From Escherichia coli (GTDB lineage: Bacteria; Pseudomonadota; Gammaproteobacteria; Enterobacterales; Enterobacteriaceae): a DNA stretch of 64,000 bases. Of the stretch, positions 1-53,795 are shown in pieces. The stretch lies in the NCBI RefSeq assembly GCF_044324785.1, contig NZ_CP172127.1. One strand, 5' to 3'. Position numbers and translations under genes: made by a program. The stretch's first letter is position 1. The number at the start of each line of letters is the position of its first letter. Below the pieces are notes generated by a model. That model was given only the letters and a program-made list of their open reading frames with translations, did not search any database and was not told where the DNA came from.

Positions 1-569
1 AGATGAAATCCCCACCGGTCCCATCTCACCAGATTGTTGACGATAATTTTACTGCCAAATTTACAGGGGCAATTAGTTTTGTAATTCCAGCTCAATCCCC
101 TGAAGACGTTGATCACCCCTCGCTCAAACACTTCATCTTTGTTCTGGTGCAGTTGTTCAAATGTGCTCAGAATGTTCGCTTCACTGACTTCCGGAAAATT
201 ATCATACTCCAGTGACCGGTACCATGTATCACGGGCCTGTGCATCCATTAAGGAAAGCATCCCTGAACGTTGCATCAGGTCACGCCAGATTTCTCGGTCA
301 AGATTCCGGGTAATGGCTTTCATTGCTGTTTCGGGTTTCTCCATCAGCCAGCAACCGCAGCGAAAATCCTGTTTCATGGCCCAGTCCGGGGCGGTTTTAC
401 CTCCAATACTTTCTGTCATTGATGAGATTTCAGCCAGTTGCCGGATAAGTGTGTCGATTTGCAGCAGTGTACTCTTTCGTACAGCCAGAATGTGGCTGAC
501 TGAGGTTGAGCAGATAACGTCCGTATGCCCGTTGACCACTTCCGGATGGGAGAGTGTGATTGCAGACAT
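1..569 (-). CDS. Hypothetical island protein, partial (C-terminus lies left of window start); possibly DUF4942-like
   Basis: Minus-strand frame opens with ATG at 567-569 (AGGAA RBS upstream) and reads MSAITLSHPEVVNGHTDVICS... without stop to position 1. The + strand ORF 109-594 is a Ser/Cys-rich antisense artefact. Family name is from memory and uncertain. Confidence 0.45.
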   Translation of the reverse strand, partial: MSAITLSHPEVVNGHTDVICSTSVSHILAVRKSTLLQIDTLIRQLAEISSMTESIGGKTAPDWAMKQDFRCGCWLMEKPETAMKAITRNLDREIWRDLMQRSGMLSLMDAQARDTWYRSLEYDNFPEVSEANILSTFEQLHQNKDEVFERGVINVFRGLSWNYKTNCPCKFGSKIIVNNLVRWDRWGFH

Positions 570-589
570 AATTGATATTCCTTTTGGTT

Positions 590-624
590 TATAAACGAAA
601 ACGCCAGCCGTATTCAGGCTGGCG
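590..624 (-). terminator. Putative rho-independent terminator (hairpin CGCCAGCC-N7-GGCTGGCG followed by T-run on minus strand)
   Basis: Inverted repeat 602-624 read directly; minus-strand transcript continues TTTTCGTTT. Lies between the 65-aa ORF and the downstream partial gene. Confidence 0.4.
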
Positions 625-653
625 TCAGTGGAATGAAGTCTGGTGAGTAAGAC

Positions 654-851
654 TCACCTGTTCTGTTGCAGAAGCTGCTGTTGGCGCAGGGTACGGATAT
701 CTTCCCTGGCCTGTTCAATGCAGGGCAGCAGTGCTGCTGAATCCGTTTTATCCTCATCGTTGTCGAAGATAATCCCTGATTCGCAGTCAATATTGTCCTG
801 CAGCCACGCAATCAGAATATCCAGCGCCGTTTCTGTGGTTAATGATTTCAT
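654..851 (-). CDS. Small hypothetical protein (65 aa) in CP4-like module
   Basis: ORF track; acidic small protein MKSLTTETALDILIAWLQDN...; tightly packed with neighbouring island genes on the same strand. Confidence 0.45.
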   Translation of the reverse strand: MKSLTTETALDILIAWLQDNIDCESGIIFDNDEDKTDSAALLPCIEQAREDIRTLRQQQLLQQNR

Positions 852-867
852 GTTGTGAATTTACGGG

Positions 868-1356
868 TTACCAGTCGAAAGTGGGGAACCCCGGCAGACA
901 TTCTGCGCCGGCGTCCAGATGAATGAGACTGACGCCATAACGCCGGGTGAGAGTGACGACCAGACGACGGAACGTTCTTGACAGGCCCAGGCGTTTAAGC
1001 CGCAGAACCGGGTACGACCATGCATCGGTACGTAACAGATAGCCGCTGCCTGTAAAATGAATCCATTCTGTTTCGCCGTCGTCATTAGTCTGGTGTGACA
1101 GCGAGTACAGCCAGGCGTTGTCCGTTTCCGTGATATGTGCGGTACTGCAACGTATGCCGGTAAGGGTTGTTAACGGTGGTGGTGTACTGGTTGACTGCTG
1201 GTCGGATTTATCGACCACGCGGAGTGAATAACCGTTTTCAGAGACCTTGTTAATCAGTTCAGCGAGATTAACACCATCGACGTCAACGACAATGCGCCCC
1301 ATGTTCAGCGCCTGCATGTTAATGCTGTCGGCTTCCGGCGTCAGGGAAAGGTTCAT
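868..1356 (-). CDS. Hypothetical protein immediately downstream of cbtA (YeeW position)
   Basis: ORF track (162 aa); start overlaps cbtA stop by 4 nt (ATGA), suggesting translational coupling. Confidence 0.5.
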
Positions 1357-1736
1357 TGTTTCGCCTCCTCCGGATGCTTGCCCAGGGTAATGTTATTTAC
1401 CATTCTGTAATTGTCCCGGGTCATCAGGCCGGTCGCCCTGCGAGCCCGGAGAATATCAATGCTGTTGATTAACTGAGACGACGGGGCTCCTGCGCTGAAT
1501 CCCGGCTGGTCAGTTCGTACCAGCACGTATTTTTCAACGAGAAAGTTCACCGCGTCACACAGTGAAATCCCTGCCTCAATATGCTGCTCAATCACACGTT
1601 CATCAGCGAACGGTGTGTCATTCAACGTAAGGCCATAGTGCTGGTCCAGCAGTCGGGTGAGCAGTGTCTGCCAGATTTCAACCGGAGACGGGCAGCGCGA
1701 TGCCGCCCGTACGTGTGTGTCGGGTAATGTTTTCAT
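1353..1736 (-). CDS. cbtA: CbtA/YeeV-family toxin (type IV toxin-antitoxin, cytoskeleton-targeting)
   Basis: Product from internal ATG at 1734-1736 reads [56 protein letters not shown]..., recognised as YeeV/CbtA family. The track ORF has an upstream extension that is probably not translated. Confidence 0.85.
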
Positions 1737-1812
1737 ACTGAAGGTTTTCCTGATATGCAGAGATGAAAAATGGAAAAGTGGCGTGGTGAAAGCACCAGGC
1801 CGGAGCAGAAGG

Positions 1813-2193
1813 CTATTCCGGAGGGTTACTTTCCGTTTCGGTCGCAGGATAAACAGCCAGATAAACGTAACCACAGGAGCCGAGGGTGTCGGCATCGCAG
1901 GTCAGCCCTTTCGCATACAGCGTGACGGTATGCTGATGCCGGGGATTCAGTTCACCGCTGGTGAGCATGAGTTCCAGTTGTTTCATCAGCAGTGGAAAAG
2001 CCTGGTCCAGATGGTATGCATCCGCATTGCTGAACCGGCCTCTGATACCGGCGCGGTCTGCAAGGTAATGCAACCGGTTACCCTCCTGCACCAGACGTGC
2101 CCCGAAACAGGGCGTCACGATGCAGGGCAGCCCCCACCAGGGGCGGTCTTTGTTGTCGTCGGGAAGCGTTGTCCCGGGGAGTGTGTCTGACAC
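1813..2193 (-). CDS. cbeA: CbeA/YeeU-family antitoxin
   Basis: Product [52 protein letters not shown]... matches YeeU family; likely GTG start at 2191-2193 with GAGGA RBS 9 nt upstream. Confidence 0.85.
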
Positions 2194-2203
2194 GATAAAA
2201 TCC

Positions 2204-2887
2204 TCACAGAAAATCGGTGAATGATAGTTTAACGATGACGGGGCAGCCGGCGCGCAGACCGGCTTCGGTGAAGGTATATTCGTTGATGAGAAGGGCCTCA
2301 TCCACAGCGGCGTCTGAGGTCAGCCAGTCGTACTCGTTTTCCAGTTGACGGTACAACCAGAAGGCCAGGTCGCGCAGGGCTTCGCTGACTGCGGCTTCCG
2401 CATCGGTTGTCATAGCCTGACCAGTCGGACTGTTCCGGGTGACGGTGATATCCATGCAGTACGGATGGCAGTAACGTCCCCGGTGGTGGATTTCAGCCTG
2501 CAGTTGCCAGAAGTTACGCTTCTGCACCGCCTGCAGGGCATCCGCGATACGATGAAGCTCACGGTCCTGCGGGGCATACACCCCGACTCTCCTGGCTGTT
2601 GCTGACTGCCAGTGCCAGCGTCCTTCAAAACAGGCTCCGTCCCCCTGGCTGCAGAATCCGCTGAACCAGATGCACGGCTCTTCCATAAACCTGCCGTTGC
2701 TGAGCCGGATAACACGCTGGCGGAGGTCAATCCCGAAAATGCCACAGACCTCCCTGAAGTCCCCATACACGTTTTCATACCAGTTGCTGTCAGCATGATG
2801 CTGACGGTACCAGTCGCGGGCTTTTTCCTGTGCGGTGGAGGATAGCTCATTCAGTGTATACACAGTGGTGGTGATAATTCTGCTCAT
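2204..2887 (-). CDS. Hypothetical protein (227 aa) between YeeT-like gene and antitoxin
   Basis: ORF track; Trp/acidic-rich product MSRIITTTVYTLNELSSTAQEKARDWYRQHHADSNWYENVYGDF...; AAGGG RBS; no family recognised. Confidence 0.5.
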   Translation of the reverse strand: MSRIITTTVYTLNELSSTAQEKARDWYRQHHADSNWYENVYGDFREVCGIFGIDLRQRVIRLSNGRFMEEPCIWFSGFCSQGDGACFEGRWHWQSATARRVGVYAPQDRELHRIADALQAVQKRNFWQLQAEIHHRGRYCHPYCMDITVTRNSPTGQAMTTDAEAAVSEALRDLAFWLYRQLENEYDWLTSDAAVDEALLINEYTFTEAGLRAGCPVIVKLSFTDFL

Positions 2888-2905
2888 CAGAGTGCCCTTA
2901 CTGAC

Positions 2906-3127
2906 TCAGTTCAGAGTGACGTTCATCAGCCGGACATACGGGCCAAAACTGTCCTTACGGCGTTCAGCAAACACGGCCAGCACACCGGGAATATCCTGCA
3001 CTTCACGACCGGTATACGCCTCAGCACTGCCGTGCCAGCGGTATTTGCCGGTACAGAAAGGAAAAAGACGGGATGCCGGATGTTGTTGGTGAATACGCAT
3101 GGCTTCACCACGGGTGATGATTTTCAT
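2906..3127 (-). CDS. yeeT: YeeT/YkfH/YpjJ-family protein (DUF987)
   Basis: 73-aa product MKIITRGEAMRIHQQHPASRLFPFCTGKYRWHGSAEAYTGREVQDIPGVLAVFAERRKDSFGPYVRLMNVTLN recognised. Confidence 0.85.
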   Translation of the reverse strand: MKIITRGEAMRIHQQHPASRLFPFCTGKYRWHGSAEAYTGREVQDIPGVLAVFAERRKDSFGPYVRLMNVTLN

Positions 3128-3189
3128 AGTGTGATACCTCTGAAGACAGAAGATAAAAGTGCAAACAAGCGTGATGTGGTTGTGACGGG

Positions 3190-3666
3190 TTAAAGCAGAC
3201 CATGTTCGGCAAAGGAGAAAACCTGGTTGCCACCGACTATCAGATGGTCCGGCACCCGGATATCCACCAGGCCCAGTGCCTGTACCAGACGTTCCGTGAT
3301 AAGGCGGTCTGCCTTGCTGGGTGTGACTTCACCGGACGGGTGATTGTGCGCCAGCACCACGGCAGCGGCATTGTGGTACAGGGCGCGTTTAATCACTTCC
3401 CGGGGATGGACTTCCGTGCGGTTGATGGTGCCGGTGAAGAGGGTTTCACCGGCAATCAGCTGATTCTGGTTGTTCAGATACAGCACCCGGAATTCTTCAC
3501 GCTCCAGTCCCGCCATGTTCAGAATCAGCCATTCCCGTGCCGCACGGGTGGAGGTGAAGGCCACGCCGGGTTCATGAAGATGGCGGTCCAGAGTTTTCAG
3601 GGCCCGCAGAATGAGACTGCGCTCGCCGGGCGTCATCTCTCCGGGCAGAAAGGAAAGCTGCTGCAT
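3190..3666 (-). CDS. yeeS: RadC-like JAB-domain protein (YeeS/YkfG/YfjY family)
   Basis: Product MQQLSFLPGEMTPGERSLILRAL... with HNHPSG JAMM-type motif; GGAGG RBS favours ATG at 3664-3666 over the ATG at 3681. Confidence 0.85.
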   Translation of the reverse strand: MQQLSFLPGEMTPGERSLILRALKTLDRHLHEPGVAFTSTRAAREWLILNMAGLEREEFRVLYLNNQNQLIAGETLFTGTINRTEVHPREVIKRALYHNAAAVVLAHNHPSGEVTPSKADRLITERLVQALGLVDIRVPDHLIVGGNQVFSFAEHGLL

Positions 3667-3681
3667 TGTCCCTGCCTCCAT

Positions 3682-4167
3682 TCAGTCGATGATGCGCATA
3701 ATGGCGCTGCATTCCGGATGCTGCAGGGCGTAATCCCGCAGCCGGTAATAATGGACCGTCATGGCATAACACTCCGTACGACAGGCGTGATGACTGTACG
3801 TCATCAGACAGGCAGCAATGCCGGCAGCTTCCGGACTCATTTCAGCGCGGTTACCGTTCATGGCATTGAACAGTACCCATGTTTCGTCATCATCGTCATC
3901 CGGTTCGGGTGCCATAAATGCCCCGCCGTTGTTCAGGGTGTACAGATTCCAGATACCACCGCAGTAGTCTTCACACAGACGGTCCATCCAGCCGAAGACA
4001 CGGGGCTCCAGGGCCACCCACTGTGGAATGAGGCCAAAGTGCTGCGGCCAGAAGCTGATGCGCTGTTCATCAGGGACTATGGTGGCAACCAGCTGAGGCT
4101 GGTCATTCCCTGATGCAGCGGTTACGGAAACAGAAGGAGTGGTGGAATTATGCAAGACGGTTGTCAT
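3682..4167 (-). CDS. Antirestriction protein (KlcA/ArdB-like, YfjX family)
   Basis: 161-aa product with acidic DDDDDE stretch and C-terminal YRLRDYALQHPECSAIMRIID typical of CP4-type antirestriction proteins; AAGGA RBS. Confidence 0.75.
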   Translation of the reverse strand: MTTVLHNSTTPSVSVTAASGNDQPQLVATIVPDEQRISFWPQHFGLIPQWVALEPRVFGWMDRLCEDYCGGIWNLYTLNNGGAFMAPEPDDDDDETWVLFNAMNGNRAEMSPEAAGIAACLMTYSHHACRTECYAMTVHYYRLRDYALQHPECSAIMRIID

Positions 4168-4258
4168 GAGATTATTCCTTATAAAAAGTAAATGAATGGA
4201 AGAAATCCCGGGGGAAGGGACAGACGTGAGTCAGAACTGCGCTTTCAGGGAAACGGCA

Positions 4259-5077
4259 TCAGCGCATACTCTCCAGCAGCGTTTCAGCCATCACCCACAA
4301 TGCGCGGTTGAGCTTAATGTCGGTGTCGATGCTGTGAATGGCACGGGTATGGATACGTTTTCCTCTGGCACTGCGACCGGAAATCCCGCCTTTCAGCATA
4401 TTCTCCTGAATGGTCTGATAAGCACTCCACAGGTCCTTACCGTAATCCTCCCGGCGTCGTGGCGTCAGAATGTCGGCGGTGGTGACGGGCCGATGTTCGT
4501 CACCATAACGGTAAGTCAGTGCCGCCTGTGCCAGCGCCTGGCGTGCCGGTGGCGGCAGAATCAGCGACTGCATGGCATCACGCTTTTCCTCAATCCGGTC
4601 AAAAACCCCCACCACCTCGTAAGCCCCTTCAATAACTTTCTCCACCACATTTCCCCGGTGCGGAACACGCACTTCCCCCAGAGACTGACCACAGACGCAT
4701 CCGTTCTGACAGACGAACCTGAAGTAACCCGGCAGCATCTGGTAGCTGGAGGTACCGTCATGGGAGTTGAGCAGAATGATTTCAGGGACATGTTCTCCGT
4801 TTATCTCTCCGGCCCGCCGCAGACGCAGCATATGTTTTGTGTATCCCCGGCGGCCCGGGTCGCGCACACGGGTCTGGCAGGCGAAGAATGGCTGAAAGCC
4901 TTCCCGCTGCAGGCTTTCCAGTACGGTGATGGTGGGAATGTACGCATATCGTTTACTGCGGGAAGTATGCCGGTCTTCACCGAAAATACTGGGAACATAG
5001 TGCATCAGTTCTTCGTGTGTCAGCGGACGGTCACGGCGTATCTGGTTCGTATAACCAAAACGACTGGCTAGTCGCAT
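4259..5077 (-). CDS. DUF932-like protein (YfjQ/YafZ family) of CP4-like elements
   Basis: 272-aa ORF with strong AAGGAG RBS; family assignment from recalled similarity. Confidence 0.65.
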   Translation of the reverse strand: MRLASRFGYTNQIRRDRPLTHEELMHYVPSIFGEDRHTSRSKRYAYIPTITVLESLQREGFQPFFACQTRVRDPGRRGYTKHMLRLRRAGEINGEHVPEIILLNSHDGTSSYQMLPGYFRFVCQNGCVCGQSLGEVRVPHRGNVVEKVIEGAYEVVGVFDRIEEKRDAMQSLILPPPARQALAQAALTYRYGDEHRPVTTADILTPRRREDYGKDLWSAYQTIQENMLKGGISGRSARGKRIHTRAIHSIDTDIKLNRALWVMAETLLESMR

Positions 5078-5350
5078 AATTTGCTCCTTATGAATGAGTT
5101 AGCGGTATAAATGAAAAAGCCGCGTCTCCCGGAGAAGACACGGCCTGACAGATGAAATGAATGACGTTTATTGTCTGAGAAGCCCTTCACTGGCGAGCTG
5201 CGTATTTTTATGGAAGGAGATCACCCAATAACCCCATCGGGATCGGGTAATAACCGGCCAGACTGTGATCGATTCAGATGCCATTTGGCAGCAAAAGAGC
5301 CTTCGGCAATAAACGTGATGTACAACCCGGCATATCTGTTACTCCCTGAA

Positions 5351-5382
5351 AGTAAAAGGCCCCGGTCATTATGACCGGGGCC
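5351..5382 (-). terminator. Rho-independent terminator downstream of Ag43 gene
   Basis: Hairpin GGCCCCGGTCA-TTA-TGACCGGGGCC at 5358-5382; T-run on the minus-strand transcript. Confidence 0.6.
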
Positions 5383-5403
5383 TGAAGGGGAGTGACCTGA
5401 TTA

Positions 5404-8250
5404 TCAGAAAGTCACATTCAGCGTGGCCTGACCGTTATAGCCTTCGGCGCTGCTGCCGCTGACGCTGTGGGCATAACCGGCCTGAACGCCCAGGGTGATA
5501 TTTTCCCGGACACGGGCTTCCAGTCCGGCCTGCAGGTCCAGTGACGTGCCATTCTGGGACGGTGAGAACGTCATGTTACTGCCGGCGGCGGCTGTCCCCA
5601 TGCTCATGTCACCCCGGGAACTGAAGGTGCGGATAACAGAAGGCTGTACCCACCAGTTCACCGGCAGTTCACGCACACGGTGTTTTGCACTGTCGCGCAG
5701 GGTGTCACGGGATGAGGTGCCTTCACCAAAGCTCATATCGTTGTGGCTGCCCAGACGGAAGCCGGCACGCATATGTTGTGCACTGCCATGCCCGAACTTC
5801 ACATAACCGGCGTTATCCTGGCCGTCATCCAGGGAAAGTCCCTGCCAGGTGTACTGCAGTTGTGGTTCCAGCATCAGGTTGTCAGTGATACTGAAGGGCA
5901 GACCGGTTTCCAGTGAGCCCAGCCAGCCCCAGCCCCGGGCGCGGAAGTCGTTATTGTCCGATGACGCTTTCATGCTGTGGCGGGTTCCCTGTGCCATAAT
6001 GTCAGCCCACAGGCCGGAGGACGTGTGTACCAGATTCAGGTATCCGCCCAGGCTGCCGGCATCATCCCGGACCGTGCCGGCGCGGGAGCCGTCATCATCC
6101 TTAACATCAACGGAAGAATGGCCAGCAGCACTATATACCCCCGCGGTCACAGACATACCGGCAACCTCTGTTCTCAGCAGGTCACTCTCCAGACGGACGA
6201 AGCCATAGCTGCCGCTGCTTTCCGGCGTGGCCCCACGGGCAATACCGCCGTTGTTATCGTGACCGAGATGACCGCCCTGAATGCTGAGACGGACGCTGTT
6301 ATTTTCACCGTTTACACCGGTCTGATGGCTGCGGGAGCCTGCCAGAATCCGGTCATAGTCCATTGCCTGTGTCAGCATGGAGGCATACAGGGGGACTTCA
6401 GCACGATAAGCATTTTCACTGCGCAGGTACCAGTCTTCATCGCTGTCACGGTTCAGGGTGTAGTTAAAGGCACCGGCCTGAAGCGGGCGACTCAGGGCAA
6501 ACGCACCTTCTTCTGTGGTGGCACCATTCTGTGCATCCACAACCCGGATACCCTGTCCGGAAGTTGCCACCCCGAGGTTACTGTTTCCGACATTTGTGAA
6601 CGCAAGCCAGGTTTTGCCGGTTGCCTGACCACCATTAATCACCAGCTGGTCAGAGGCATTGCTGCCATCAAGGCGAACACGCATATTGATGGTGCCACCC
6701 TGACCGGTGAGGTTACTGGTGGTCAGTTTATGGAACGTTACCGGGGCGTCGCCTTTTGCAACAGCACGGCTCAGGACGGCATCCTGTGTCGTCTGATTAT
6801 CAAAGCGAATCTCCCCTGCGTTAACAATATCGCCGGTACTGACCACATCACCATTCAGTACCATGCTGGCGCCTTTACTGAGCTGTGTTCTGCCACTCAG
6901 ACTTCCCCCGGCAGCCAGCGTCAGTGTTCCACGATGTCCGACAGTGGTGTTGCCAGCCTGTCCCCCGGCATTAACCGTAAAGCTGCCGCCATTTTCCAGC
7001 AGCAGGCCGCTGGCCTGACCGGATATGCCATCAATACTGAACTTACCGCTGGCATTGGTCCCCTCAACAGTGGCACCACTGTCTGCAATCAGGGCACCAC
7101 CGGATGTCATGGTGACACCTGTCGCCTTACCACCGGCAGACACTGCCAGGGTACCGCCGTCATCCACCCGTGTTTTCTGCGCTGAATGACCCTCCAGTAC
7201 ATCCAGACGACCGCCGGACTCCAGAACAACACCGTCAGCCTTACCGTTTTCCACCGCGAAATTGCCCAGACGGTTGCTGCCGGTGACGGTTGCCGCCGTA
7301 CTGGTGACCAGTGCGCCTCCCTGCTTCAGGGTGACATTCGTGGCTGTACCACCGGCGTTCACCTGCAGTTTGCCTTTCTGGTTAACGGTGGTGAAATCCG
7401 CCAGACCACCTTCCTTGATAATCTGCCAGCCGTCACTGTTCACAACAGTGTCAGACGTTGTACCGCCGTTGTGTACATACTGGTTACCGCCATTCAGCGT
7501 GGTATCCAGTGCGTGGCCATGTACCGTCTGGTCGCCGCCGGCATAAACCACAGTGGTATTTGCTGTTCCTTCAACAGTCACAATCTGACGACCATTTTTA
7601 TTGATGGTGGTACGTACGGCATTTCCGCGAACAAACTGCCCGGTATCACCATTTTCTGCATCCGGTCCTCCTTCTGCGCCGGTATTCACAACGGTGTCTG
7701 TTGCCACTGCGCCGGGTTTGACGACCTGCCAGCCCTTATCATTAATGACGGTTCCTGTGGCTATCGCACCTTCATGCATCCACTGCTCGCCACCATTCAG
7801 CGTGGTGTTCAGTGCCAGTCCCTTCAGGCTTTGTCCGCCTCCTTCATTGATTATTGTGTCTGTAGCCTTTCCCCCGGCACCTACAAACTGGAGCCCGCCG
7901 CTGCTGATGGTGGTATTACTGGCTGTGCCGCCATCCTGTACCCATTGCCCGCCGGTATTGGCCTCGTTATCCGTCCCATACTCCAGCCCGGTACTGATGG
8001 TCATTCCGTTGGTCGTACCGAAGACAATCTGGTTGTCATGATTTGTCAGTGTTCCGCCGTTCACGGTTTCTCCCGCCTCTACAACCGTGTCAGCAGCCAG
8101 TGCCGGGACTGGCGTGACAGCAGCAAGAGACAGCGCAACCGCCACACCGGCGCGTTTTCCCCGTGAGCGGGCCAGTTCGGAAGCCACCACCAGGGTGCCC
8201 GTAATGTGATTCCATACCAGCCTGTAGCTGGTGTTCAGATGTCGTTTCAT
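5404..8250 (-). CDS. flu: Antigen 43 (Ag43) self-associating autotransporter adhesin
   Basis: Product from ATG at 8248-8250 reads MKRHLNTSYRLVWNHITGTLVVASELARSRGKRAGVAVALSLAAV... (Ag43 signal and passenger); repetitive beta-helix passenger and C-terminal beta-barrel ending ...ATLNVTF; AAGGA RBS. Confidence 0.9.
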   Translation of the reverse strand: MKRHLNTSYRLVWNHITGTLVVASELARSRGKRAGVAVALSLAAVTPVPALAADTVVEAGETVNGGTLTNHDNQIVFGTTNGMTISTGLEYGTDNEANTGGQWVQDGGTASNTTISSGGLQFVGAGGKATDTIINEGGGQSLKGLALNTTLNGGEQWMHEGAIATGTVINDKGWQVVKPGAVATDTVVNTGAEGGPDAENGDTGQFVRGNAVRTTINKNGRQIVTVEGTANTTVVYAGGDQTVHGHALDTTLNGGNQYVHNGGTTSDTVVNSDGWQIIKEGGLADFTTVNQKGKLQVNAGGTATNVTLKQGGALVTSTAATVTGSNRLGNFAVENGKADGVVLESGGRLDVLEGHSAQKTRVDDGGTLAVSAGGKATGVTMTSGGALIADSGATVEGTNASGKFSIDGISGQASGLLLENGGSFTVNAGGQAGNTTVGHRGTLTLAAGGSLSGRTQLSKGASMVLNGDVVSTGDIVNAGEIRFDNQTTQDAVLSRAVAKGDAPVTFHKLTTSNLTGQGGTINMRVRLDGSNASDQLVINGGQATGKTWLAFTNVGNSNLGVATSGQGIRVVDAQNGATTEEGAFALSRPLQAGAFNYTLNRDSDEDWYLRSENAYRAEVPLYASMLTQAMDYDRILAGSRSHQTGVNGENNSVRLSIQGGHLGHDNNGGIARGATPESSGSYGFVRLESDLLRTEVAGMSVTAGVYSAAGHSSVDVKDDDGSRAGTVRDDAGSLGGYLNLVHTSSGLWADIMAQGTRHSMKASSDNNDFRARGWGWLGSLETGLPFSITDNLMLEPQLQYTWQGLSLDDGQDNAGYVKFGHGSAQHMRAGFRLGSHNDMSFGEGTSSRDTLRDSAKHRVRELPVNWWVQPSVIRTFSSRGDMSMGTAAAGSNMTFSPSQNGTSLDLQAGLEARVRENITLGVQAGYAHSVSGSSAEGYNGQATLNVTF

Positions 8251-8459
8251 CAGCTTTTCCTTACAGAGGGTGAATAAAAAAGCCGGTACCCACAAATGTG
8301 GATACCGGCAGGTACAAAACAGCATGGTCAGATAAAGTGGTTTTTCCCGGACATAAATGCTTCCCCTCTCTCATCCGCCAGAGAAGTATCAGTCCGTTGT
8401 GTGCAATTCCGTTCTGCATGATGAAGAGATTCAGCTGCCTTTTCGCAGACCATTAACCA

Positions 8460-8510
8460 CCATAAACGATCGATGACAACGATCGATACCTGTTTTATCG
8501 ATCGTTTTAT
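8460..8510 (-). promoter_or_regulatory. agn43 phase-variation switch: three GATC (Dam) sites in the OxyR-binding leader region
   Basis: GATC at 8468, 8481 and 8500 within AAACGATCGATGACAACGATCGATACCTGTTTTATCGATCG, about 220-250 nt upstream of the flu start. The same yeeP-flu interval may also hold an IsrC-like sRNA (not verified). Confidence 0.7.
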
Positions 8511-8621
8511 TCTATTAACAGCAAGGCAGTCACGCAAGAGAAAGAGGTGGGTATGAGGTGTTTGTATCATGTTTTCAGTTGGTTAACGCAATGTAATCAG
8601 GCATTTCCCCTGGCAGAATGT

Positions 8622-9494
8622 TCAGAAGAAAATCCAGTTCCATACAGCGCGGGCAACAGAGACCACCGTGTCACGGACGACACGCAGAACCGTACGAGCC
8701 ACAGAGGCAACACAGACGCTCTCCGCCGTGTCAAATATCCGGTCCACCGCACCGGTAAACTGTTCACGGGCCTGCCCCCGGACAGATTCCGTGCACAGCT
8801 CGTCCTGCAGGCGGGTCATCAGGGGACTGGCGGCATGGTCGGGAAGTGCTGTCATGAGCGCACTGACCAGCGTATCCAGTTCCCAGCCGGTGCGGGCCGA
8901 TACGGCCACAACCGGATGTACGGGCCGGAACAGACGGAATACCGCCTCCGTTTTTTCGCGAATGTTCTGTGCCTGTGCGGGAGAAGGCTGAATACCGGCC
9001 ATATCCCATTCATGGCAGGGCTCCGTTTTATCGGCCTGCGTCACCACAAACAGCACCTGCTGATGTCCCCGGTGCAGGATGTGTCGCCAGAAATACTCAT
9101 CCACAGACAGGGCACGGTCATCGGCTTTAATCAGCCACAGTACCAGGTCAAGTTCAGGCAGAATGTCACGGTACAGGGCTTCATACTCTGCATCCCTGTC
9201 CCGGCTCTCGCCCACCCCGGGCAGGTCAGTGATAACCATGCTGTGACCGTGGCCACTCAGACGGAAGCGCCGCACTTCCCGGGTGCCGGCGTGAACATCA
9301 CTGACCGGGGTGACCTCCCCCTGAAACAGTGCATTACAGAGTGAGGATTTACCGGCCCCGCTTTTCCCCATAATGCCAATCACGGGTTCGTGACTGGTGA
9401 GTTTACGCAGATGTTCCAGGATGTGACGGGAAAGTGAGTAAGGCAGGGAAGAAAGTGGTTTTTCAATTGCCTCAATGGCATCAGACGGATTCAT
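8622..9494 (-). CDS. yeeP: YeeP/YkfA/YfjP-family GTPase
   Basis: P-loop GIMGKSGAGKSS and GTPase motifs (DLPG, TQADK); ATG at 9492-9494 has a GGGA RBS, whereas the track's GTG start at 9533 has none. Confidence 0.8.
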   Translation of the reverse strand: MNPSDAIEAIEKPLSSLPYSLSRHILEHLRKLTSHEPVIGIMGKSGAGKSSLCNALFQGEVTPVSDVHAGTREVRRFRLSGHGHSMVITDLPGVGESRDRDAEYEALYRDILPELDLVLWLIKADDRALSVDEYFWRHILHRGHQQVLFVVTQADKTEPCHEWDMAGIQPSPAQAQNIREKTEAVFRLFRPVHPVVAVSARTGWELDTLVSALMTALPDHAASPLMTRLQDELCTESVRGQAREQFTGAVDRIFDTAESVCVASVARTVLRVVRDTVVSVARAVWNWIFF

Positions 9495-9757
9495 ACATGT
9501 ATTCCCGGTGAAAAAAGACAAAACCCCGCGCACCGGAAAGGTGGCGGGGGATTCACGGAGATAATATCTGTCTGAAATTATTTAGAATGCACCTGGTGCA
9601 CTGCAAAGGAAAGGCAATATTCCGTTCCTCCTCCTTGTCGTGAATACCCCAGGTATCTCACAATGTACACCGACTTACTCCGGGGCTGCCTGAACCACAA
9701 GATTGCTGTAGAATTGCCCCCAATGATTCAGGTCCAAACCAGGAAAATGGATTAAAA

Positions 9758-53585: not shown

Positions 53586-53795
53586 GATCGATCTCCTTGT
53601 TTGTTAAGCCTTCGATCTCTAAAGCATTATCGGACTGATATGCCATGTTGGGAAGAAGGTTTTGATCAGTTTAGGAAATCATCTCATTGTGTCAAAAACA
53701 CCCACTTAAGTCTTTACGATTATCCGTTGCATAACCCGATATTAGTTTCATTATAGGGCACCGCTTACCTGTCGTATTATGTAGTACCAGCAACA

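Follow-up and report, generated by a model that had tools for sequence, protein, structure and literature searches.

The locus under study lies in a 64-kb window, by which we mean the whole stretch of Escherichia coli DNA that was analyzed, and comprises, all on the minus strand, a gene for a YeeP-like GTPase, a regulatory interval bounded by the 3' end of that gene, and an intact flu gene for an autotransporter adhesin (Table 1). The sequence is 100% identical to that of E. coli strain MRSN346647, and the RefSeq annotation of the identical region gives the flu product as "Ag43/Cah family autotransporter adhesin" (WP_000820472.1). Downstream of flu, MRSN346647 carries genes for a DUF932 protein, an antirestriction protein, a JAB-domain protein, and a YeeU/CbtA toxin-antitoxin pair, and the module ends at tRNA-Ser next to infA. 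A preliminary description of this DNA had called the Ag43 copy island borne, and the setting agrees with that, as the identical region of MRSN346647 sits in an insertion adjoining tRNA-Ser and infA. On the upstream side of yeeP-flu, the MRSN346647 island (positions 1-19000 of our locus L002, presumably the part of the window beyond about position 9700) encodes the M subunit of a type I restriction-modification system and contains many IS elements (IS1, IS3, IS5, and IS256 fragments) and a block of glycosyltransferase, glf, and O-antigen ABC-exporter genes.

Table 1. Features of the flu regulatory region and the flanking genes, in window coordinates
Feature	Position	Strand	Basis and remarks
YeeP-like GTPase gene, upstream	8622..9494	-	Pfam MMR_HSR1; RefSeq "GTPase family protein"
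-35-like hexamer TTGCGT	8532..8537	-	Ungapped K-12 comparison; 3/6 matches; 17 bp upstream of the -10 hexamer
-10 hexamer TAGAAT	8509..8514	-	Same as in K-12; nearly invariant in 69 metagenomic alleles
OxyR half-site A (predicted)	8501..8515	-	ATAGAATAAAACGAT, 8/10 to ATAGnTnnnAnCTAT; overlaps the -10 hexamer and GATC-I; identical in K-12
GATC-I	8503..8500	-	Sequence scan; order given along flu transcription
GATC-II	8484..8481	-	19 bp past GATC-I
OxyR half-site B (predicted)	8469..8483	-	ATCGTTGTCATCGAT, 8/10; spans GATC-II to GATC-III
GATC-III	8471..8468	-	13 bp past GATC-II
flu leader RNA, IsrC/Rfam IS102 homologue	8269..8505	-	RF00124, 71.6 bits (gathering score 46), model positions 1-206
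Intrinsic terminator	8276..8309	-	12-bp stem with 8 G-C pairs and 4-nt loop at 8309..8282; T6 at 8281..8276
Shine-Dalgarno sequence and start codon of flu	8248..8262	-	AAGGA at 8262..8258, ATG at 8250..8248; sequence, start as in the identical RefSeq record
flu, Ag43/Cah family autotransporter adhesin, 948 aa, intact	5404..8250	-	Pfam ESPR, AIDA, AC_1, and Autotransporter beta-domain

On the plus strand, the three GATC sites in front of flu occupy 8468-8471, 8481-8484, and 8500-8503, so that successive starts are 13 and 19 bp apart; in the orientation of flu (minus strand) the spacing is 19 and then 13 bp, which is the register of E. coli K-12. The preliminary description had assigned all three sites, at this spacing, to the flu leader; the sites and the spacing are as it gave them, but GATC-I lies at the predicted transcription start and not inside the leader. 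With 206 GATC sites in the 64-kb window, about one triplet within 36 bp is expected by chance at the window-wide density, and a further such triplet, in line with this expectation of about one per window, is present at 53586-53617 (sites at 53586, 53590, and 53614). Clustering alone is therefore weak evidence, and the clustering statistic was replaced by a test of the exact register and by conservation across copies. The exact K-12 architecture, GATC-N15-GATC-N9-GATC, has a single match in the window (8503..8468, minus strand), and 100 dinucleotide-preserving shuffles gave no match at all.

The register match with K-12 is based on an ungapped comparison anchored on GATC-I; a gapped MAFFT alignment that included K-12 introduced a 13-nt gap and misaligned GATC-II and GATC-III, thereby hiding the register. 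In MG1655 the three sites stand at positions 1018, 1037, and 1050 of our locus L001, again in the 19/13 register. A consensus promoter scan of the region found no promoter, because the -35 hexamer matches at only three of six positions, and the promoter was assigned by homology to K-12 instead: the K-12 sequence AATAGAATAAAACGATC, with its -10 hexamer TAGAAT, is identical in the window, and the TTG of the -35 hexamer TTGCGT is common to the K-12 hexamer TTGTCC at the same 17-bp distance from the -10. By homology to the 5' end of K-12 isrC, the predicted transcription start is the G of GATC-I, at 8503.

Half-sites in the window and in K-12 were scored against the ten specified positions of the OxyR dimer consensus ATAGnTnnnAnCTAT; this consensus, that of Toledano (1994), is given, in slightly garbled form, in PMC2909390. 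Half-sites A and B are the best two in both sequences, with 8/10 each. Half-site B reads ATCGTTGTCATCGAT in the window and ATCGTTTATATCGAT in K-12, a difference confined to the three central free "n" positions, with all ten consensus-specified positions the same. The preliminary description had seen in this arrangement the classical Dam/OxyR switch, a view that it would have given up had the OxyR half-sites proved not to be conserved on alignment with K-12; the alignment returned the same 19/13 register, an identical -10 hexamer and half-site A, and a half-site B that departs from K-12 at free positions only, and the conservation of the half-sites across 69 metagenomic alleles (see below) points the same way. 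The starts of the two half-sites are 32 bp apart, which corresponds to 22 bp plus one helical turn, and this extended spacing, described by Toledano in 1994, is said to be the arrangement contacted by reduced OxyR. By direct reading, CGAT or ATCG takes the place of CTAT or ATAG in three of the four tetramers recognized by OxyR, and each of these three overlaps one GATC, so that they would provide a structural basis for the mutual exclusion of Dam methylation and OxyR; as the predicted half-site A extends over both the -10 hexamer and the start site, repression would also be explained. According to the abstract of a 2002 paper by Wallecha, transcription reportedly starts at the G of GATC-I, the footprint reportedly extends from -16 to +42, and a 101-nt region is said to be sufficient; in the window such a footprint would presumably fall at 8519..8462. 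We read positions 8462-8537 (minus strand) as the promoter and operator of an agn43 (flu) allele.

K-12 agn43, which resides in the CP4-44 prophage, also has an upstream yeeP-like GTPase gene, and the window conserves its terminator hairpin, T-run, Shine-Dalgarno sequence, and start codon. Nevertheless, only 56 of 102 positions are identical over -40 to +62. Between the half-sites (+5 to +18) the window has GATAAAACAGGTAT where K-12 has AATATCTATTTTAT, the region after GATC-III differs too, and a central K-12 half-site in the register of oxidized OxyR (ACGATCAATATCTAT) scores 6/10, against 2/10 for its equivalent in the window. With these changes in the spacer and the loss of the central half-site, OxyR affinity or redox dependence could differ between the two alleles. 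The leader measures 222 nt in K-12 and 253 nt in the window, with a nonhomologous center, and K-12 Ag43 is of a longer type than the 948-aa protein encoded here.

At a coverage of at least 80%, the 501-bp regulatory interval was found in 3433 of 5426 complete E. coli genomes, and K-12-type copies align to it at the ends only. The 91-bp promoter-operator has matches in 3306 of the 5426 genomes, with the window's own 91-bp allele present at an identity of at least 99% in 45 records. The common operator/leader type of E. coli is that of the window and not the K-12 type that stands behind the experiments and the Rfam model. Of 13 copies drawn from across the ranking, 10 retain the full triplet in register; GATC-III is missing from L004, GATC-I and GATC-II from L006, and GATC-II from L012, whose -10 is mutated as well. 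Since such decayed copies exist, it is meaningful to describe the operator of the window as intact. Intact three-GATC operators were also seen to persist in front of a damaged or missing flu gene, which contains internal stops in L007 and L009, is truncated in L011 and L013, and is deleted in L005 (NZ_CP148275.1), where the operator and leader lead into a DUF987 gene instead.

Metagenomes were scanned with a pattern whose anchors lie outside the operator, which gave 120 loci with 69 distinct 104-mers; distinct alleles were counted because metagenomic copies are not phylogenetically independent. All three GATCs are present at 19/13 in 115 of the 120 loci (65 of the 69 distinct alleles). Across the 69 alleles, mean entropy is 0.011 bit at the consensus-specified positions of half-site A, 0.048 bit at those of half-site B, and 0.036 bit at the twelve GATC positions, and it rises to 0.596 bit at the free positions of half-site B and 0.581 bit in the spacer between the -35 and -10 hexamers; variation is concentrated in this spacer and in the free positions between GATC-II and GATC-III. 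Low entropy at specified positions combined with high entropy at free positions is the pattern expected for a functional promoter with an OxyR operator, and the constrained and the free positions of the operator are thereby mapped at single-base resolution. A hotspot at 8474-8479 (leader +25 to +30), between GATC-II and GATC-III, displays 16 variants among the 69 alleles and falls both on the free positions of half-site B and on the loop of a 5' hairpin. The sequence and register of the operator and their conservation are direct observations, as are the homology to K-12 and the integrity of the flu gene.

We consider it very probable, at roughly 85%, that positions 8462-8537 (minus strand) are the agn43 (flu) promoter and operator and work as a classical Dam/OxyR epigenetic phase-variation switch; the island-borne Ag43 is probably phase variable. 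OxyR binding, the methylation states, the transcription start site, and switching are here inferred from the DNA sequence. Dam and OxyR are encoded by core genes of E. coli. A sigma-70 promoter (-35 TTGCGT, -10 TAGAAT) would initiate transcription at or beside the G of GATC-I, and an OxyR tetramer would bind the two dyad half-sites, the 32 bp between their starts being the extended spacing used by the reduced protein. On unmethylated DNA, OxyR at half-sites A and B would occlude the promoter and shield the three GATCs from Dam, giving the OFF state, and methylation of the GATC adenines by Dam would exclude OxyR and give the ON state; each round of replication would reopen the competition between Dam and OxyR and produce heritable, reversible ON and OFF lineages. 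Competition of Dam and OxyR at the three GATCs is established for K-12 (PMC13337833, PMC3764049, PMC4872104). Two E. coli methylome papers, one on EC958 and one on O111, mention antigen 43, and we found in them nothing specific on GATC methylation at Ag43.

The switch could instead be locked or strongly biased in this particular allele, the GATC-II/III core GTTGTCATC and the altered spacer shifting the affinity of OxyR so far that transcription is held in a near-constitutive ON or OFF state. Such a reading would suit an allele whose core was not seen among the 120 metagenomic copies, being absent from the 16 variants recorded there, whose exact 91-bp sequence is matched at an identity of at least 99% in only 45 records, and which lacks the central K-12 half-site; moreover, natural copies do decay, as L004, L006, and L012 illustrate through the loss of GATCs and, in L012, a mutated -10. 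In the window, however, the specified OxyR positions, the three GATCs, the -10 hexamer, and the coding sequence are all intact, and the changes peculiar to it fall at positions that vary freely across alleles. We regard a locked or biased allele as unlikely and unsupported.

A further layer of control may reside in the leader of about 253 nt: a strong intrinsic terminator lies in it 26 nt ahead of the start codon, so that many transcripts should end as an IsrC-like RNA of about 225 to 230 nt unless termination is overcome. The flu leader extends from GATC-I to the terminator hairpin just before the ribosome-binding site, and its match to Rfam IS102 (8505..8269, minus strand), at 71.6 bits against a threshold of 46, confirms for the window what the preliminary description had stated for K-12, namely, that the yeeP-flu interval hosts IsrC. 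The K-12 annotation has isrC begin at the G of GATC-I (2071317) and end at the T-run of the terminator; IsrC is therefore the terminated flu leader. The K-12 leader (positions 1016-1219 of L001) scores 252.6 bits to the IS102 model versus 71.6 bits for the window type, of which only the ends align. The conserved parts are the 5' end, the GATC-II/III hairpin, and the terminator; the center is nonhomologous to K-12, and the two central helices of IS102 either lie within insertions of 41 and 63 nt that do not align or contain noncanonical pairs. At least three leader types exist, that of the window (253 nt), that of Cah in O157 (252 nt), and that of K-12 (222 nt). The terminator stem is nearly invariant in 74 aligned leaders and is the most stable element of the predicted leader fold, the fold of the whole leader being only marginally better than that of shuffled sequence (z-score, -1.67). 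Control of flu by antitermination of IsrC is stated in PMC5389530, which cites Wallecha 2014 for it. An open reading frame of 52 codons within the leader (8419..8261, minus strand; ATG at 8419) crosses the terminator hairpin and stops at a TAA in the Shine-Dalgarno region of flu. It was considered as a translation-coupled antiterminator and was discarded as a conserved coding element, as a 1-nt indel breaks the frame in the Cah-type leader, whose shifted frame runs, by eye, into flu, and the center of the K-12 leader, where such a frame would lie, is nonhomologous; the frame is probably not a conserved peptide.

The leader also bears on the view that the GATC palindromes are conserved mainly for a role in RNA, as the 5' hairpin of the leader or of an IsrC-like RNA, and not for control at the level of DNA. 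The IS102 model places a 9-bp hairpin on the arms of GATC-II and GATC-III, with the variable stretch as its 7-nt loop, and the predicted fold of the window leader likewise contains a stable 5' hairpin; GATC arms, however, can pair in any case because they are self-complementary palindromes, and the minimum-energy fold pairs GATC-I with GATC-II rather than GATC-II with GATC-III, so that no particular RNA hairpin stands out. The -10 hexamer and half-site A lie outside the transcript and yet are conserved to the same degree, and published work on K-12 assigns switching to DNA methylation and OxyR (PMC13337833). A predominantly RNA-based explanation is consequently very improbable in our estimation, and the two roles of the palindromes are not mutually exclusive.

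The surroundings of the operator form a GATC desert. Between positions 112 and 10512, six GATCs were observed versus approximately 37 to 40 expected, and all six fall in two triplets; there is none in the flu coding sequence and none in the 5.1 kb from 112 to 5218, which contain the DUF932, antirestriction, JAB/RadC-like, and YeeU/CbtA genes. Likewise, 92 of 94 metagenomic loci have no GATC in the 3 kb that follow GATC-III, and the triplet is therefore the only Dam target for kilobases. The second triplet of the region, at 5219, 5241, and 5267 (spacing of 22 and 26 bp), is intergenic, between the flu stop codon and the DUF932 gene (minus strand), in an interval (5219-5270) that is annotated as a DUF905 gene in some genomes; a role for it as an additional switch is not supported: of 17 homologous regions only 7 retain the full set of sites, and reading the sequence revealed no evident OxyR-like dyad. 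That the flu triplet arose by chance, or simply follows from repeated TCGATCGA palindromes, and is devoid of regulatory meaning might be entertained from the expected frequency of about one triplet within 36 bp per 64 kb and the example at 53586-53617, but a chance origin is effectively refuted by the absence of the exact K-12 register from all 100 shuffles and by the retention of the triplet in 115 of 120 metagenomic copies, besides its position in a 10-kb region otherwise purged of GATC and its homology to the experimentally defined K-12 operator.

A more ambitious interpretation would be that selection has insulated and tuned the Dam/OxyR switch, the triplet being left as the sole target of Dam and SeqA for kilobases and variation at the five hypervariable free positions of the core, of which the window has a rare variant, together with loss of the central half-site, setting the OxyR affinity of each allele. 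We offer this as a speculation that is rather unlikely to be correct; were it so, co-resident Ag43 copies could differ in their ON/OFF switching rates or in redox sensitivity. GATC-free regions in mobile elements have already been described in general terms (PMC4659465, PMC6602927), and we found no statement in the literature that ties them to the agn43 switch.

A three-GATC switch in front of antigen 43 is already known, a textbook system, and the allele type is that of most E. coli genomes. The importance of this locus beyond annotation is small. In such strains, the adhesin of the island is probably made by a fraction of the cells only, with heritable switching, which bears on the reading of aggregation, biofilm, and expression data, where artifacts of colony picking are relevant (PMC3764049). 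The by-products of the analysis are useful, if modest: the prevalence of an operator type other than that of K-12, the map of the operator, and the GATC desert.

The predicted switch can be set beside other systems governed by Dam. In pap, as here, a heritable methylation pattern arises from competition between Dam and a DNA-binding protein (PMC13337833), but the regulators are Lrp and PapI, two GATCs 102 bp apart lie in two alternative sets of sites, and there is no sequence relationship with the switch described in this study. In the Dam/OxyR switches of Salmonella phage P22 gtr and opvAB, GATCs are likewise overlapped by OxyR half-sites, and OxyR and Dam methylation block each other (PMC2909390, PMC4856963); in those systems the half-sites number three or four, the four GATCs lie upstream of the promoter, and OxyR has alternative positions for activation and repression, whereas the window has three GATCs and a single predicted repressing site over the -10 and +1. 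The cah gene of E. coli O157:H7 (our locus L003), which encodes a calcium-binding Ag43 homologue, has an operator of the same family (GATCGATAAAACAGGTATCGATCG...) in which the three GATCs likewise stand in register, and its promoter and terminator are the same; the GATC-II/III core of cah reads TTTATA, as in K-12 and unlike the window, and its 252-nt leader contains a different segment at about +125 to +200.
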